Assembly: GCF_044647545.1 (NCBI RefSeq)
Contig: NZ_CP172818.1
Strand: one strand, 5' to 3'
DNA from: Escherichia coli
GTDB lineage: Bacteria; Pseudomonadota; Gammaproteobacteria; Enterobacterales; Enterobacteriaceae
DNA length: 64,000 nt
The notes under the pieces were generated by a model. It did not search any database. It had not been told where the DNA came from and saw nothing but the letters and a program-made list of their open reading frames with translations. Shown one piece after another: positions 528 to 55,697 of this stretch. The position numbers and the translations under genes are program-made. Each line of letters begins with the position of its first letter. Within the stretch, counting starts at the first letter, position 1.

Positions 528-2339
528 TTAAAAAGTGATACAGGTTGCGCCCTGTTCGGCACCGGACAGTTTTTCACGCAAGGCGCTGAATAATTCACGT
601 CCTGTTCCCACGCGTGACGCGCTCAGGTCAGGAATGTGCGGTTCGCGAGCAGCCAGTTCCGCTTCGTCTACCAGCAGCGTCAGTTCGCCTGTCTGTCCAT
701 TCACACGAATGATGTCCCCGTCGCGCACTTTTGCCAGCAGCCCGCCATCGTAGGCCTCTGGTGTTACGTGGATAGCTGACGGCACTTTACCTGAAGCGCC
801 GGAGAGTCGTCCATCAGTAACTAACGCAATTTTGAAACACCGGTCCAATAATACACCAAGTGGCGGCATGAGTTTATGTAATTCTGGCATTCCGTTCGCT
901 TTTGGCCCCTGATGACGGACAACAACGACACAATCGCGGTCCAGCAAACCCGCTTCAAAGGCCGGCATAACGTCATGCTGGCTTTCAAAAACAACCGCAG
1001 GCGCTTCAATCACCTGGTTCTCAACCGGCACGGCAGAGGTTTTCATAACCGCACGGCCCAGGTTACCGCTTAACACTTTTGTCCCACCATGATGAGAGAA
1101 AGGTTGTTCGAAGGAAGCGATCACATTGCTGTCGAGTGATTTTTCCGCCCCTTCCCGCCAGTCCAGTTCACCATTATTCAGCCATGGTTCAAGGGTATAA
1201 CGAGACAGACCAAAGCCAGCCACCGTATTGACATCTTCATGCAGCAGGCCTGCTTTGAGCAGTTCACGCACCAGAACCGGTACGCCACCTGCCGCCTGGA
1301 AGTGGTTAATATCAGCCGGACCGTTCGGGTAGAGACGTGCCATCAGCGGTACAACATCAGAAAGGTCAGAGAAGTCATCCCAGTTAATCTGAATACCGGC
1401 CGCGCGTGCCATCGCCACCAGGTGCATGGTGTGGTTAGTGGAACCACCGGTCGCCAGCAGTGCAACGATACCGTTCACCACCACTTTCTCATCTATCATC
1501 TTACCGATCGGCATCCATTCATTACCATTACCGGTCATGCGTGTAACCTGGCGCGCAGCGGCTGCGGTCAAAGCATCGCGCAGCGGAGAATCCGGATGAA
1601 CAAAAGAAGAGCCTGGCAACTGCATCCCCATAAACTCCACCACCATCTGGTTGGTGTTGGCAGTACCGTAGAAAGTACATGTTCCCGGCGCATGATAAGA
1701 CGCGGCTTCTGACTCCAGTAATGCCATGCGGTCCACTTTACCTTCGGCATAAAGCTGGCGAATACGCACTTTTTCTTTATTTGGCAAACCGCTTGCCATC
1801 GGTCCAGACGGCACAAACACCGCAGGCAAATGCCCAAACGACAGGGCTGCCATCGTCAGACCCGGGACAATCTTGTCGCACACACCGAGGAACAGCGCAC
1901 CATCAAACATGTTATGGGACAGCCCCACCGCCGCAGACATCGCAATCACTTCGCGGCTTAACAGCGACAATTCCATTCCATCCTGCCCCTGGGTGACACC
2001 ATCACACATCGCCGGAACACCGCCCGCAACCTGACCAACCGCATTCGCTTCATGCAGAGCTTTACGAATGATTTCCGGATAGTGTTCATAAGGCTGGTGC
2101 GCGGAGAGCATGTCGTTATAGGAGGTGATGATGGCGATATTGTTACGCAACATGCTTTTCAAAGAGGCTTTGTCTTCTGGCTGGCAAGCAGCGAAACCGT
2201 GTGCCAGGTTACCGCATGCCAACTGCGAACGATGAACGGTCGAAGTTTTCGCTTGTTCTATCCGGGCGAGATAAGCAGAGCGAGTCTCGCGCGAACGTTC
2301 AATGATTCGATTTGTTACGCGTAACAATTGTGGGTTCAT
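528..2339 (-). CDS. edd: Phosphogluconate dehydratase, 603 aa
   Basis: ORF 528..2396; the recognised N-terminus [20 protein letters not shown] begins at the ATG at 2337-2339, so the track's first 19 codons are dropped. Confidence 0.95.
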
Positions 2340-2461
2340 AAAGGCTCCTGAAGTTGAGTTGTCAGAGCAGGATGATTCACAACGCGTTTCATACATGGAA
2401 ATTATGATTGAAACGCCTGTAACCGGAGCTCATAGGGCAAAAACGTTTCAGTCAGTGTAAT

Positions 2462-2495
2462 AAAAAAAGCCTCGTGGGTGAATCCGCACGAGGCC
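2462..2495 (-). terminator. Rho-independent terminator downstream of zwf
   Basis: GC-rich hairpin gcctcgtg...cacgaggc followed by a T-run on the minus strand, just after the zwf stop. Confidence 0.6.
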
Positions 2496-51278: not shown

Positions 51279-51347
51279 AACGTCTCCGTGAATCACTGGT
51301 CGTTCACACCCCCTCTGCATCATGCAGAGGGGAATTTTTCCGGCAAA

Positions 51348-52337
51348 TTACTTACCGCCTAAACCTTTTTTCTCCAGTTCTTCTTTAAAGTTGTCACGCG
51401 TGATCAGTACCACGTCGGTAACTTCGGTAAATTTTGGCGGTTCAACGTCTTTTGCTACCCAGTTGTAAAGCATTTCGCTGGATTTATAGCCATGTACGTC
51501 CGGGCTTGGCAGCAGGGAACCGTAGAAGCCGGTTGCCTGTGCCTTAGACAGTTCGCTCACCGCATCCACACCGTTAATACCGATACCGATGATATCGGCC
51601 GCTTTAAAGCCCTGACCTTCCGTCGCGCGTACGCCGCCCAGCACGGTGCTGTCGTTCATACCGACGATCAGCCAATGTTTAACTTCCGGATGTTGAACCA
51701 GCATTGAGTTGGCAGCGTCAAATGCCCCCGGGATGTCGTTAGATTTGGTAGGTACCTGATAAATTTGTTTTTCCGGGAATCCTGCAGCTTTCAGCGCATC
51801 CATAGACCCCGTAGTACGGCGACGGGCGGTATCCAGTTCGTTGGCGGTAATCGCCATCACCGCGCTTTCTTTGACATCCCAGCCACGTTTCTGCATCTCT
51901 TTATACAGTTCCTGGCCCTGACGTTCGCCAATTTTAGTCGCCGCCATCATCACCAGAGGAACGGTATCCATTGGCTTACCTTTGGCGTTAACAAACTGGT
52001 CATCCACGGCAATGACTTTCATATCGTAGCCACGCGCTTTCGCGACGATGGCAGAGCCGAGTTTGGGGTCCGGAGTACAAATAACGAAACCTTTTGCGCC
52101 ACTGGCTGCCAGGCTGTCGATCGCGTTCAATGTTTTTTCGCCATCCGGCACGGCAATCTTAATAACCTCAAACCCTAAATCCTTCCCGGCTTTATCGGCA
52201 AACTTCCATTCGGTCTGGAACCACGGCTCTTCCGGTTGCTTCACCAGGAAACCGAGCTTCAGGTTCTCCGCCATAGCGGATTGTGACATAACGGCTGCCA
52301 GACCAATGGCTGCCAGGGCTTTAGTAAATTTGTGCAT
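51348..52337 (-). CDS. araF: Periplasmic L-arabinose-binding protein, 329 aa
   Basis: MHKFTKALAAIGLAAVMSQSAMAENLKLGFLVKQPEEPWFQ...; signal peptide; start at the internal ATG. Confidence 0.95.
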   Translation of the reverse strand: MHKFTKALAAIGLAAVMSQSAMAENLKLGFLVKQPEEPWFQTEWKFADKAGKDLGFEVIKIAVPDGEKTLNAIDSLAASGAKGFVICTPDPKLGSAIVAKARGYDMKVIAVDDQFVNAKGKPMDTVPLVMMAATKIGERQGQELYKEMQKRGWDVKESAVMAITANELDTARRRTTGSMDALKAAGFPEKQIYQVPTKSNDIPGAFDAANSMLVQHPEVKHWLIVGMNDSTVLGGVRATEGQGFKAADIIGIGINGVDAVSELSKAQATGFYGSLLPSPDVHGYKSSEMLYNWVAKDVEPPKFTEVTDVVLITRDNFKEELEKKGLGGK

Positions 52338-53132
52338 GGTTCTCTCCAGCTTTAGTGTCGTTTTGTGTAGGGCAAAAACGAATGACATTCGTTAAATTAA
52401 TCGGAAAACAAAGCATTACCTTTTAACTAAAAGATAAGTGACTGTGTTGACATAGTTTTAGCGAGAAATTAATTCTCCATAGGAGAGCAATATCACATCG
52501 CAGAATTACAGTGAGAACGTGCATAAATTTAGCGGGAAAAGACATAAGGAAAAGCCAATTTGTCTGACAAATTGTCTAGTGCACAGCAGATTAATCCATA
52601 AGATTAGCCTGGAAATCCTTGTTGTCTTTGGTACCCAGCGGGATGTCTTTTTTTTAACCAGTCAATAGGCCACATTACCTGGCGTTGAGTTTTTGCAATG
52701 GTGTAATAACCGCAACTCAAAGATGTGGAAAAAGCGCGTCATTCATTTCGCCATTAATTATCACCGTGTTCATTAATTAACAGAACACGTATACTGAGAG
52801 CCATATCGCAAAAATGAAAAAACGTTTTAAAAAATCATTGCTTCATCATGAATTCAAATTCACCGATTAATATCAACAAGATACAAAAAGCACTATCATT
52901 AAAATTCATTGCAGTTACATTGATTTCATCAATGAAATGTAAAAATATATAAACTTGATGATTTAAGCATTTTCTTATACCCATTCAGACGTTATTCTTA
53001 TTTCAGATCATCGTCAGAATTGACTCCACGATCACATTTCGGACCGGCAGAAAGGAATTATTCTGCAAACAGTAATTATGGTGTTTTGATTTATCTTGCA
53101 CCTCTCCACTTCTGGATATAAGGATATTAGGT

Positions 53133-53636
53133 ATGGCAACCGCTGGAATGCTTCTCAAACTCAACTCTCAAATGAACCGCGAGTTTTACGCATCCAATCT
53201 CTACCTTCACCTGAGTAACTGGTGTTCTGAACAGAGTCTGAACGGCACCGCCACTTTCCTTCGCGCCCAGGCACAGAGTAACGTGACCCAAATGATGCGC
53301 ATGTTTAACTTTATGAAGAGTGTCGGCGCTACTCCCATCGTTAAAGCCATTGATGTTCCCGGTGAAAAACTGAACTCACTGGAAGAACTTTTCCAAAAAA
53401 CGATGGAAGAATACGAGCAACGTTCAAGCACGCTGGCACAGTTAGCCGATGAAGCTAAAGAACTGAATGATGATTCAACCGTCAATTTCCTGCGCGATCT
53501 GGAAAAAGAACAGCAGCATGATGGCCTGTTGCTGCAAACCATTCTTGATGAAGTGCGCAGTGCGAAACTTGCTGGTATGTGCCCTGTGCAGACCGACCAA
53601 CATGTTCTGAATGTCGTGTCGCATCAGCTGCATTGA
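53133..53636 (+). CDS. ftnB: Ferritin-like protein, 167 aa
   Basis: [44 protein letters not shown]...; ferritin four-helix fold, paralogous to ftnA. Confidence 0.9.
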
Positions 53637-53640
53637 TCGT

Positions 53641-53676
53641 CATCGGCGCTAATGCAATTGCGCCGATGAAGTTTTT
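53641..53676 (+). terminator. Rho-independent terminator downstream of ftnB
   Basis: Hairpin catcggcgc...gcgccgatg followed by a T-run. Confidence 0.6.
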
Positions 53677-53681
53677 GAGAA

Positions 53682-53716
53682 ACCGCTGCCTCATCTTTTT
53701 GAAGCAGCGGTTTTTT
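53682..53716. terminator. Second hairpin plus T6 between ftnB and yecJ, possibly bidirectional
   Basis: aaccgctgc...gcagcggtttttt abutting the yecJ stop. Confidence 0.5.
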
Positions 53717-53966
53717 AATGGGATTCGCCCTGTGGGGTAAACTTGAGTTCAATCAGCGCGATGGCTTTTTGGATTGCCCGCATGGTGACCGGGTCTGCGG
53801 CGGCGGGATGGTGAGTAAAGTCGATATTCTTCAGCTGGCTGGACATTTTTTCGCGAACTTCAACGGGCGCGATTACATCCAGAACGTCGAGAATTTGTTT
53901 GATAACCAACTGGCAAGCAACCACATCAGAAACCAGTTCCTGATCGGCATTCAGCGGCTGGGACAT
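53715..53966 (-). CDS. yecJ: DUF2766-family small protein, 83 aa
   Basis: [41 protein letters not shown]... Confidence 0.85.
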
Positions 53967-54052
53967 CGTAAACTCCTGATAGCATTTTGAAAGCCGTTAT
54001 AGTAGCGGCTTCACATCTTCAGCGATAGTCACATCCACCGTCACCAGGACAC

Positions 54053-54080
54053 AAAAAAACCTGCCGGAGCAGGTTTTTTG
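54053..54080. terminator. Bidirectional terminator (A-run, hairpin, T-run) at the azuC 3' end
   Basis: acaaaaaaacctgccggagcaggttttttg; symmetric flanks permit termination in both directions. Confidence 0.65.
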
Positions 54081-54167
54081 TTATCGGAACATATTGCCTG
54101 GCGGTACGTCTTTGAACGTCTTGCAATAGTTATTGAACATACTTTTCAGGATTTTGCGCAGTTTCAT
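54081..54167 (-). CDS. azuC: 28-aa small protein AzuC
   Basis: Minus-strand ORF atgaaactgcgcaaaatcctg... translating to MKLRKILKSMFNNYCKTFKDVPPGNMFR; below the 60-aa cutoff of the ORF track. Confidence 0.85.
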   Translation of the reverse strand: MKLRKILKSMFNNYCKTFKDVPPGNMFR

Positions 54168-54249
54168 CGCGGCACTCCGACCATTTGTTATACAGGTGTT
54201 ATTGTCTTTGCACTTATAATATGACAACCATCACAAAAATCAATCTTTA

Positions 54250-54265
54250 TGTGATGCAAATCACA
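54250..54265. promoter_or_regulatory. CRP-type palindrome upstream of azuC
   Basis: TGTGATGCAAATCACA, perfect CRP-like half-sites, about 85 nt upstream of the azuC ATG. Confidence 0.65.
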
Positions 54266-54428
54266 TAAATACCCCTTTAATGTTATAAAAATGATAATCA
54301 AAAAGCAGCCCCCCATTTCTGACACCTACAGATGGCAAGAAATAGCGCCTGCCAGGCGTCTTTTTCGGCCATTGTCGCAGCGCTGTAACACGTAAAATAG
54401 TGCTTTCTCTTACTCTTCTGGCTGGACC

Positions 54429-54752
54429 ATGAGACTTCTGATTCTGACTCTTTCATTAATAACGCTGGCGGGGTGTACGGTTACTCGCCAGGCCCATGTG
54501 AGCGAAGTTGACGCGGCAACAGGTATTGTACGGTTGGTTTATGACCAGGCTTTTTTGCAGCATGCCCATACCGATCGTTATGTCAGTCGCGGGATCGCCG
54601 ATCGCGCATGCCAGCAGGAAGGCTATACCCACGCGATCCCCTTTGGTCAGCCAGTAGGCAACTGTAGCCTCTTTGCGGGTTCCTTATGTTTGAATACGGA
54701 ATTCACTTTGTCATATCAGTGCCATCATTCCGCCTTCCCTGTCTTTCTCTAA
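54429..54752 (+). CDS. yecR: Lipoprotein YecR, 107 aa
   Basis: MRLLILTLSLITLAGCTVTRQ... lipobox LAGC. Confidence 0.88.
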   Translation: MRLLILTLSLITLAGCTVTRQAHVSEVDAATGIVRLVYDQAFLQHAHTDRYVSRGIADRACQQEGYTHAIPFGQPVGNCSLFAGSLCLNTEFTLSYQCHHSAFPVFL

Positions 54753-54922
54753 ATGTTTTAATCAGCGAGGGGATCTTCGCTGATTAAATAAATAGCGGTA
54801 ATGCGTTTTATTCCCATTCGTATTTTTAATAATTGAAGTTTATATTTTACCTTTTGCAAATAATAAAATAACAAATTATAGTGACGCCACAGCAACAAAT
54901 ATAACCTTTGTGGAGCACTATC

Positions 54923-55420
54923 ATGCTGAAACCAGAAATGATTGAAAAACTTAATGAGCAGATGAACCTGGAACTGTACTCTTCACTGCTTTATCAGCAA
55001 ATGAGCGCCTGGTGCAGCTATCATACCTTCGAAGGTGCTGCCGCGTTCCTGCGCCGCCACGCCCAGGAAGAGATGACGCATATGCAGCGTCTGTTTGATT
55101 ATCTGACTGATACCGGCAACTTACCGCGTATTAATACCGTTGAATCTCCGTTTGCTGAATATTCCTCACTTGATGAATTATTCCAGGAAACCTATAAACA
55201 CGAACAATTAATCACGCAGAAAATTAACGAACTGGCTCATGCTGCGATGACCAATCAGGACTACCCAACATTTAATTTCCTGCAATGGTATGTTTCTGAG
55301 CAGCATGAAGAAGAGAAACTGTTCAAATCGATTATTGATAAATTAAGCCTGGCAGGCAAAAGCGGCGAAGGTCTGTATTTTATCGACAAAGAACTCTCTA
55401 CCCTCGACACACAAAACTAA
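54923..55420 (+). CDS. ftnA: Ferritin (iron storage), 165 aa
   Basis: [56 protein letters not shown]...; start at the internal ATG 54923. Confidence 0.95.
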
Positions 55421-55426
55421 TGTTCT

Positions 55427-55453
55427 CCGGCGGCAGGTTTACTGCCGCCGTTT
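55427..55453 (+). terminator. Hairpin downstream of ftnA (weak T-run)
   Basis: ccggcggcag gtttact gccgccg ttt. Confidence 0.35.
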
Positions 55454-55457
55454 CAAA

Positions 55458-55697
55458 TCAGTGACGGCAAATCTTACTCTGATCGGTCGAAAAACCTTCT
55501 TCCGAAGGTATAAATTTGCCTTTTGCTGCCAGAAACGCTACCAGCTCTCCCGCTGTCATCCCTTCTGCCGAGCAGGTGTGAAAACGTGCCTGTTCACCAA
55601 AACGCGCTTTAATCGCAGCTTCCAGACTGGCATGCGTATATTGCTCGCCTGATTCAATCATCATATTTAACACTTCGTGACCGTGAATAGAGTCCAT
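55458..55697 (-). CDS. yecH: Small Cys-containing protein YecH, 79 aa
   Basis: MDSIHGHEVLNMMIESGEQYTHASLEAAIKARFGEQARFHTCSAEGM... Confidence 0.85.
   Translation of the reverse strand: MDSIHGHEVLNMMIESGEQYTHASLEAAIKARFGEQARFHTCSAEGMTAGELVAFLAAKGKFIPSEEGFSTDQSKICRH

Follow-up and report, generated by a model that had tools for sequence, protein, structure and literature searches.

The Escherichia coli araF-ftnB intergenic region very likely combines two known control regions separated by the scar of a lost gene

The 795 bp that lie between araF and ftnB in Escherichia coli very likely form a composite divergent control region, in which the known control regions of araFGH and ftnB are separated by the scar of a lost gene. 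In the window analysed here, a stretch of 64,000 nucleotides of E. coli DNA, this gap (52338-53132) is the exact intergenic region between the ATG of araF (52337-52335, minus strand) and that of ftnB (53133, plus strand), and every part of it that is conserved belongs to a known regulatory system, save for one palindrome in the araFGH region (52556-52574). The sequence matches, the pattern of conservation and divergence and the loss of a DJ-1/PfpI-family gene are direct observations of the present analysis. The original prediction for this DNA had described an AT-rich araF-ftnB intergenic region of 795 bp lacking any ORF of 60 aa or more, a description that the two ATG positions bear out; the longest ORFs wholly within 52338-53132 reach 49 aa, and the gap is 35.0% GC, compared with 50.5% for the window overall. 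A run of nine T residues placed near 52650 turned out to be one of eight (52648-52655), situated inside AT-rich filler found only in Escherichia. The gap sequence is 100% identical to that of E. coli strain FDAARGOS_497, the gap occurs in 5417 of 5426 complete genomes with no annotation inside it, and the annotation of K-12 MG1655 shows araF and ftnB with no feature between them.

The anatomy of the gap was derived from a comparison of 38 FtnB-encoding loci in species-representative genomes, in each of which araF was located. The gap measures 789-800 bp in Escherichia (E. coli, cryptic clades, E. whittamii and E. albertii) and 1100-1435 bp in Citrobacter, Leclercia, Lelliottia, Enterobacter, Huaxiibacter and Silvania. 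When compared with 24 non-Escherichia loci by blastn and by nhmmer, the latter with a profile built from the 24 gaps of other genera, the gap could be aligned only over 52339-52624 and 52827-53128. Divergence was measured between the window and five non-coli Escherichia lineages, with the third positions of the araF and ftnB codons as the benchmark (identity 0.68-0.79). Identity was 0.88 for the araF leader, 0.85 for the araF promoter, 0.89 for the ftnB core promoter and 0.96 for the ftnB leader, and it was 0.39, 0.68 and 0.60 for the segments 52622-52740, 52741-52826 and 52827-52928, respectively. Since the middle thus lies at or below the third-codon identity, whereas the flanks lie above it, the middle is unconstrained and both ends are under purifying selection. 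The conservation analysis that the original prediction had recommended gave a matching picture across genera, where both ends of the gap are conserved and the middle is not.

The araF side (52338-52621) holds the araFGH leader and promoter, with a CRP-like site and two pairs of AraC half-sites that are conserved across genera, as judged from an alignment in araF orientation of 20 sequences from about eight genera. Binding of AraC to araFGH and induction of these genes by arabinose are established, and the E. coli promoter, pFGH, is reportedly activated by AraC together with CRP. Judging from promoter geometry, araF transcription would start near 52448, 7 nt past the -10 hexamer, and the predicted 5' leader would therefore span about 111 nt (52338-52448, minus strand); it can be followed in the cross-genus alignment, is 88% identical to non-coli Escherichia and includes the conserved patches GGTAATGCnTTGTTTT and CCCTACAnAAA as well as the ribosome-binding region AAAGCTGGAG. 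The candidate -10 hexamer TAAAAC (52455-52460, minus strand), kept as TAAAAC, TACAAC or TAAAAA among the 20 sequences, falls within a block that is near-invariant across genera (TGTAATTCTGCGgTGTGATgnnGCTCTCcTATGGAGAATnAATTTCnCGCTAAAACTA in araF orientation), as does the CRP-like site TGTGATATTGCTCTCC (52482-52497, minus strand), which agrees with TGTGA-N6-TCACA at 8 of 10 consensus positions. The block TGTAATTCTGCGgTGTGATgnnGCTCTC at this site hardly changes between genera, and a centre at -41.5 from the predicted start would put the site in a class II position.

Farther upstream, the proximal AraC pair consists of CAGTGAGAACGTGCATA and TAGCGGGAAAAGACATA (52509-52546, plus strand; 7/10 and 8/10 against TAGC-N7-TCCATA) and the distal pair of CAGCAGATTAATCCATA-agat-TAGCCTGGAAATCCTTG (52584-52621, plus strand; 9/10 and 8/10). 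Both pairs show a spacing of 21 bp and are conserved across genera, their half-sites being centred at -69/-90 and -144/-165, respectively, from the predicted araF start; the hallmark of AraC-activated promoters, i.e. 17-bp direct-repeat half-sites placed 21 bp apart, is accordingly found here twice and in about eight genera. All four half-sites are read on the plus strand and point away from araF, an orientation that reportedly agrees with the description of pFGH, and the junction within the distal pair, TCCATAAGATTAGC, is identical to the araI1-I2 junction. The locus is the same as that of pFGH: TAGC-N7-TCCATA half-sites come in 21-bp-spaced pairs, a CRP site would sit between AraC and RNA polymerase, and there is no difference in kind, with the site positions given here deduced from sequence and conservation. 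An araFGH promoter with AraC and CRP sites had been presumed to lie in the gap, and the consensus scan and the cross-genus conservation both support that claim. This promoter very probably depends on its activators, combining a weak -10 hexamer (TAAAAC), a predicted class II CRP site and a leader of about 111 nt with AraC pairs that lie upstream of CRP in the orientation opposite to araI of araBAD, and RNA polymerase would be recruited jointly by arabinose-bound AraC and cAMP-CRP. The cross-genus homology of the araF side stops just beyond the distal AraC pair, at about 52623-52624, where other genera continue with the terminator hairpin and stop codon of a DJ-1/PfpI gene.

Between the two AraC pairs lies CAATTTGTC-T-GACAAATTG (52556-52574), a perfect palindrome whose arms are 9 bp long and whose centre falls at about -117 from the predicted araF start. 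It is the strongest inverted repeat of the gap, a repeat with 9-bp arms being reached in 5% of shuffles. By our own count, about 17 of the 20 sequences in the cross-genus alignment retain its core ATTTGTCnGACAA, slightly varied in places, and the three sequences of the Citrobacter freundii complex have lost it. This palindrome is not known to be part of the pFGH description. The dyad also displays a t-GT-N3-AC-a layout of the kind typical of GntR-family operators.

At the opposite end, the ftnB core promoter and leader (52929-53132) contain a published CpxR box and the sole sigma70 ChIP-seq peak of the gap; binding of CpxR, CsrA, sigma70 and H-NS in the region has all been shown in the literature. 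The tandem GTAAA-N5-GTAAA arrangement expected upstream of a Cpx-induced promoter is present at 52939-52953 (plus strand) as GTAAAAATATATAAA, with 9/10 matches and a centre at about -60 from the ftnB start site. This box is identical to the ftnB entry among known CpxR sites (PMC9600279, Table S1, where it is credited to reference 3 of that paper), is listed again in Table S4 of the same paper for araF-ftnB, and coincides in site and in tandem-pentamer architecture with the ftnB (yecI) box ascribed to Yamamoto and Ishihama 2006 in the citation given by PMC6686035. Its pattern is kept as GTAA(A/G)-N5-(G/A)TAA(A/G) from Escherichia to Leclercia, Silvania and Dryocola. The gene is a member of the CpxR regulon and of the CpxR iModulon, and both NlpE overproduction and cpxA24 induce ftnB. 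The surmise that the gap might house a regulator site for ftnB was hence correct, the site being the CpxR box.

The sigma70 core promoter of ftnB (52966-52998, plus strand), recognised by its cross-genus conservation, comprises TTAAGnATTTTCTTAT, a conserved block at the -35 region, together with TATTCT (52993-52998) as its -10 hexamer. Only one sigma70 ChIP-seq peak was recorded in the araF/ftnB gap, both aerobically and anaerobically, at U00096.2 coordinate 1984820 (Myers 2013; PMC3688515); by our own coordinate conversion it falls at about 53004 of the window, at the ftnB promoter. The reported length of the ftnB 5' UTR, 127 nt (PMC6686035), sets the start site at about 53006. A sigmaE promoter for yecI/ftnB is ascribed to Rhodius 2006, as cited in PMC6686035, and a candidate for it, TAAACTT-N16-TCTTA, may be placed at 52950-52977 (plus strand), where it matches GGAACTT-N16-TCTGA at 9 of 12 positions. 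Very probably, a weak sigma70 promoter with its start near 53006 is activated by phospho-CpxR bound to the box at about -60, with a sigmaE promoter probably overlapping it.

The 127-nt leader that follows (53006-53132, plus strand) carries GGA motifs at 53041, 53054, 53114 and 53122, the last of which is inside the Shine-Dalgarno sequence, and the hairpin GCAGAA-AGGAATTA-TTCTGC (53047-53066), seen in the minimum-free-energy fold, exposes one of these GGA motifs in the loop; the GGA and hairpin motifs are conserved across genera. Four GGA motifs, one at the Shine-Dalgarno sequence and one in a hairpin loop, are what is expected of a CsrA-regulated leader, and multiple GGA motifs with this same placement are shared with the CsrA-repressed leaders of ftnB, glgC, cstA, pgaA and hfq. 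No difference from them exists, the ftnB leader being itself the published footprinted case: a 127-nt 5' UTR with four GGA motifs was described, of which CsrA footprints three, including the Shine-Dalgarno one, and CsrA represses ftnB translation in vitro (Pourciau et al. 2019; PMC6686035). By binding three GGA sites, among them the one at the Shine-Dalgarno sequence, CsrA blocks translation of ftnB.

Upstream of the core promoter, a distal segment (52827-52928) shows weak cross-genus homology, the nhmmer profile alignment extending back to 52827. It contains an FNR-type site at 52863-52876, at about -136 from the ftnB start site, which reads CCGATTAATATCAA in the window strain and is the perfect consensus TTGATTAATATCAA in K-12. 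Measured against TTGAT-N4-ATCAA, the K-12 site scores 10/10, whereas that of the window strain scores 8/10 with CCGAT as its left half-site, and the site is probably weaker or non-functional in the window strain. In K-12, TTGATTAATATCAA is listed as a predicted FNR site that has no ChIP peak and lies within H-NS ChIP-chip signal (Myers 2013, Table S6; PMC3688515), the evidence for H-NS at the K-12 gap being this single table entry. In K-12 the site is thus listed among the FNR sites that are 'silent' because nucleoid proteins mask them, a class from which the degenerate version of the window strain, with its CCGAT left half and 8/10 matches, departs. An FNR site at an unusually long distance has been attributed to Partridge 2007, and it is probably this one. 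In Salmonella, H-NS binds and represses ftnB (PMC3212961).

What, then, occupies the middle of the gap? The extra DNA in the longer gaps of other genera is a gene of 185 aa on the minus strand that belongs to the DJ-1/PfpI family (PF01965, E=3e-29); it is carried by Citrobacter, Salmonella and Leclercia among others, and it has its own terminator and promoter. Twenty-four loci carry an intact copy, whereas the gene is truncated in two (L014 and L038), absent from one (L007) and frameshifted in another (L036); it has thus been lost more than once, the partial losses in L014, L038 and L007 being independent. In the window, its position is taken by Escherichia-only AT-rich filler (52622-52826), for which blastn and the nhmmer profile of the 24 gaps found no counterpart over 52625-52826 in the same gap of other genera. 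Against other Escherichia species the filler retains only 39-68% identity, with indels, i.e. a level at or below third-codon identity. The middle (~52622-52928) is probably what was left over after the Escherichia lineage lost its DJ-1/PfpI-family gene, and this AT-rich DNA would now evolve neutrally under a cover of H-NS that, in K-12, would mask the upstream FNR site.

It is possible, if doubtful, that the DJ-1/PfpI gene instead gave way to DNA of foreign or de novo origin, in which case the middle segment would not be its decayed remnant. No protein or DNA similarity of the segment to the gene is detectable, a tblastn search for a remnant in the E. coli gap having left no trace (E>1), and 52622-52740 cannot be aligned between E. 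coli and either E. albertii or E. whittamii. Against such an origin, the filler has no similarity in phage records, and its matches in the plasmid collection come from E. coli chromosomal DNA that had been deposited as plasmid sequence; a weak similarity that hints at a vestige appears with MAFFT, which sets CTATTGACTGGTTAA and CCCG..CTGGG of E. coli against the last codons of the gene (TATTACCCCTGGTAA) and its terminator hairpin. Far less probable is a hidden gene. The original prediction saw room for an unannotated small RNA in the length of the gap. A small RNA or small protein encoded in the middle might draw some encouragement from the roughly 300 bp that belong to neither promoter, from short islands conserved in Escherichia (such as TTAATTATCAC, a TATAAT-like ATAATG at 52791, which is TATACT in the window strain, and CATCATCATGA) and from the neighbouring gap, which carries AzuR/AzuC and so attests to small genes in the area. 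We nonetheless consider such a gene very unlikely. The extra length is accounted for by the loss of the DJ-1/PfpI gene that sister genera possess, and the middle, which also contains indels, diverges at least as fast as third codon positions do. Neither K-12 nor the PGAP-annotated genomes have an annotation there, and the single K-12 sigma70 peak is at ftnB. An Rfam scan of 51300-55500 at E<=1 gave no match in the gap; a promoter and terminator scan of the gap returned no promoters and two weak terminator-like matches, one of them inside the araF promoter; and the middle segment has no excess of RNA structure (fold z-scores of +0.21 and +0.77). The features by which bacterial small RNAs are recognised, namely a promoter and terminator of their own along with conservation, structure or family membership, are thus missing from the middle segment. 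No ORF of at least 20 aa in the araF-side and middle parts stays intact across Escherichia species, and literature searches retrieved no report of a transcript or small gene within the araF-ftnB gap. Seemingly conserved ORFs in the ftnB leader were set aside, as they only reflect its near-invariance and indels disrupt them in other genera. The reading of the region as two control regions with a gene-loss scar between them leaves the palindrome that first drew attention to the gap to be accounted for. That palindrome, said to be nested, imperfect and some 190 nt before ftnB, is indeed so: the 28-nt TTACATTGATTTCATCAATGAAATGTAA (52915-52942; -91 to -64 from the ftnB start site) ends 191 nt 5' of the ftnB ATG, is self-complementary at 20 of 28 positions and is made up of two overlapping perfect repeats with 7-bp arms, CATTGAT-ttc-ATCAATG and ATTTCAT-ca-ATGAAAT, in a TTACAT/ATGTAA frame. 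It straddles the border between unconstrained and conserved DNA, its left arm lying in the former and its right arm in the core promoter. The last four bases of the right arm, ATCAATGAAATGTAA, are the first four of the CpxR box, and this is the full extent of the overlap with the box, the palindrome itself being no CpxR motif. The right arm has only two differing positions among 8 Escherichia sequences, both in E. albertii, and Citrobacter and Salmonella retain part of it, whereas the left arm is altered in E. whittamii, in the cryptic clades and in every other genus. The conserved right arm is very probably part of an extended CpxR/promoter-upstream element, and the left arm very probably arose in neutral filler of the E. 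coli lineage; the dyad symmetry would therefore be recent, and we infer that it most likely has no function.

Could the palindrome nevertheless be an E. coli-specific operator, bound by a dimeric regulator that sits beside the CpxR box and modulates CpxR- or sigmaE-dependent activation of ftnB? Its placement at -91 to -64 would suit an upstream regulator, and a related dyad, AATTGATTTAACCAAT, is kept in E. albertii. Chance alone accounts for a single repeat with 7-bp arms (0.66 per dinucleotide shuffle), yet an overlapping pair with different centres occurs in just 0.8% of 2000 shuffles, in a test that was picked post hoc. Among 5415 matching E. coli genomes, 4174 show an identity of 99% or more over the 65 nt around the palindrome; strong identity inside one species is, however, expected anyway, is compatible with recent common ancestry and is alone no proof of function. 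The left arm, as described, lies in DNA that changes at the neutral rate, and the palindrome matches none of the FNR, CRP, Fur and AraC consensus sequences. An FNR reading in particular was rejected, given that TTGAT-N3-ATCAA has a spacer of three where four are needed and that the FNR-type site lies 45 bp upstream. Neither ftnB nor araF appears in the searchable ArcA ChIP supplementary files, and this absence of ftnB speaks against an operator as well. Such an operator thus seems distinctly unlikely. If both dyads are weighed as candidate operators, the one at 52556-52574, which is conserved across genera, is better supported than the E. coli-specific one at 52915-52942, and there is a slim chance that one or the other serves a regulator not yet linked to araFGH or ftnB. 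A Fur box, or another iron-responsive operator that would place ftnB under direct Fur control, is the least credible reading of the palindrome and in our view extremely improbable. The product of ftnB is ferritin-like, the sequence is AT-rich and symmetric, and expression of ftnB in Salmonella is Fur-dependent; however, the Salmonella gene has no recognisable Fur motif, and an indirect effect via hns was proposed (PMC3212961), while an ftnB'-'lacZ fusion in E. coli is unaffected by fur (PMC6686035). When the 19-bp consensus GATAATGATAATCATTATC, a 7-1-7 form and a three-hexamer form were tested against dinucleotide shuffles of the gap, the palindrome scored 9/19, 7/14 and, for three NATWAT hexamers, 9, values that all shuffles reach; the best match anywhere in the gap, 12/19 at 52885, is attained by 89% of shuffles, and the left arm of the palindrome is not conserved. 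The original prediction had likened the palindrome to Fur-box repeats, a likeness that 9/19 reduces to chance, the published site at this position being the CpxR box (PMC9600279, Table S1). Of the motif scans it proposed, those for AraC and CRP thus uncovered conserved sites and the one for Fur stayed at chance level. The nearby ftnA, about 2 kb from the ftnB region in the same window, offers a comparison, as Fur is reported to activate it by displacing H-NS and so relieving silencing (Nandal 2010, as cited in PMC6686035). Both are ferritin genes with long, AT-rich, H-NS-bound upstream DNA, but the upstream DNA of ftnB has no detectable Fur site, E. coli ftnB does not respond to fur, and what H-NS is reported to mask at ftnB is an FNR site.

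Taken as a divergent control region that has already been characterised and that encloses a gene-loss scar, the region gives no hint of a hidden small RNA or of a Fur site, and the significance of this outcome beyond a tidy annotation is little. A long, AT-rich and seemingly 'empty' gap of E. coli can be explained in full by known promoters and leaders at its ends and an H-NS-silenced scar in its middle, with no need for a hidden gene; its length reflects the loss of the DJ-1/PfpI gene in Escherichia, and the upstream FNR site of ftnB proves to be polymorphic among E. coli strains. A modest but useful point to emerge is the palindrome between the AraC sites of araFGH, which is conserved across genera.

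The araFGH side of the region between araF and ftnB carries a palindrome, CAATTTGTC-T-GACAAATTG, whose 9-bp arms pair perfectly and which is situated between the two predicted AraC half-site pairs (window 52556-52574). Of 20 sequences representing about eight genera, about 17 keep its core, ATTTGTCnGACAA, by manual count. Its layout resembles that of GntR-family operators, and no binding protein could be assigned to this candidate operator. The predicted araF leader contains a hairpin with perfect 7-bp arms, AACGAAT-gac-ATTCGTT (window 52377-52393), which in E. albertii is shortened to 6-bp arms around another loop sequence and which other lineages retain only in part.

Upstream of ftnB, an FNR-type site (window 52863-52876) is polymorphic between K-12, where it is the perfect consensus TTGATTAATATCAA, and this strain, where it reads CCGATTAATATCAA, implying that its left half-site is damaged here. 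The ftnB leader (window 53006-53132) is 96% identical among Escherichia species, a higher conservation than at third codon positions within the ftnB gene, where identity to the non-coli lineages is 68-78%. The next gap encodes the 28-aa small protein AzuC (MKLRKILKSMFNNYCKTFKDVPPGNMFR), which K-12 has there too, along with an annotated AzuR RNA (AzuC/AzuR region, window 54081-54227 (-) and 54021-54134); Rfam returned only STnc370 and rsmX there, both below threshold, leaving AzuR without a family match.

What occupies the space between araF and ftnB in other genera? In Citrobacter, Salmonella, Leclercia, Lelliottia, Enterobacter, Silvania and Huaxiibacter it holds a 185-aa DJ-1/PfpI-family gene (e.g. 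1927-2484 (-) in locus L008 and 1889-2446 (-) in L009, from Salmonella enterica subsp. diarizonae), found at the equivalent position in 24 loci. L009 has no araF match; its segment 1047-1700 retains an AraH-like ORF fragment together with homologues of the beginning of araF and of the araFGH promoter (matching window 52321-52381 and 52452-52570), and looks like the scar of an internal araFGH deletion. In E. coli the position corresponding to the DJ-1/PfpI-family gene is window 52622-52826, and the gene is missing from the araF-ftnB position in every Escherichia sampled. Elsewhere among the ftnB loci compared it is truncated (L014, L038), absent (L007) or frameshifted (L036), which shows repeated loss of this gene.
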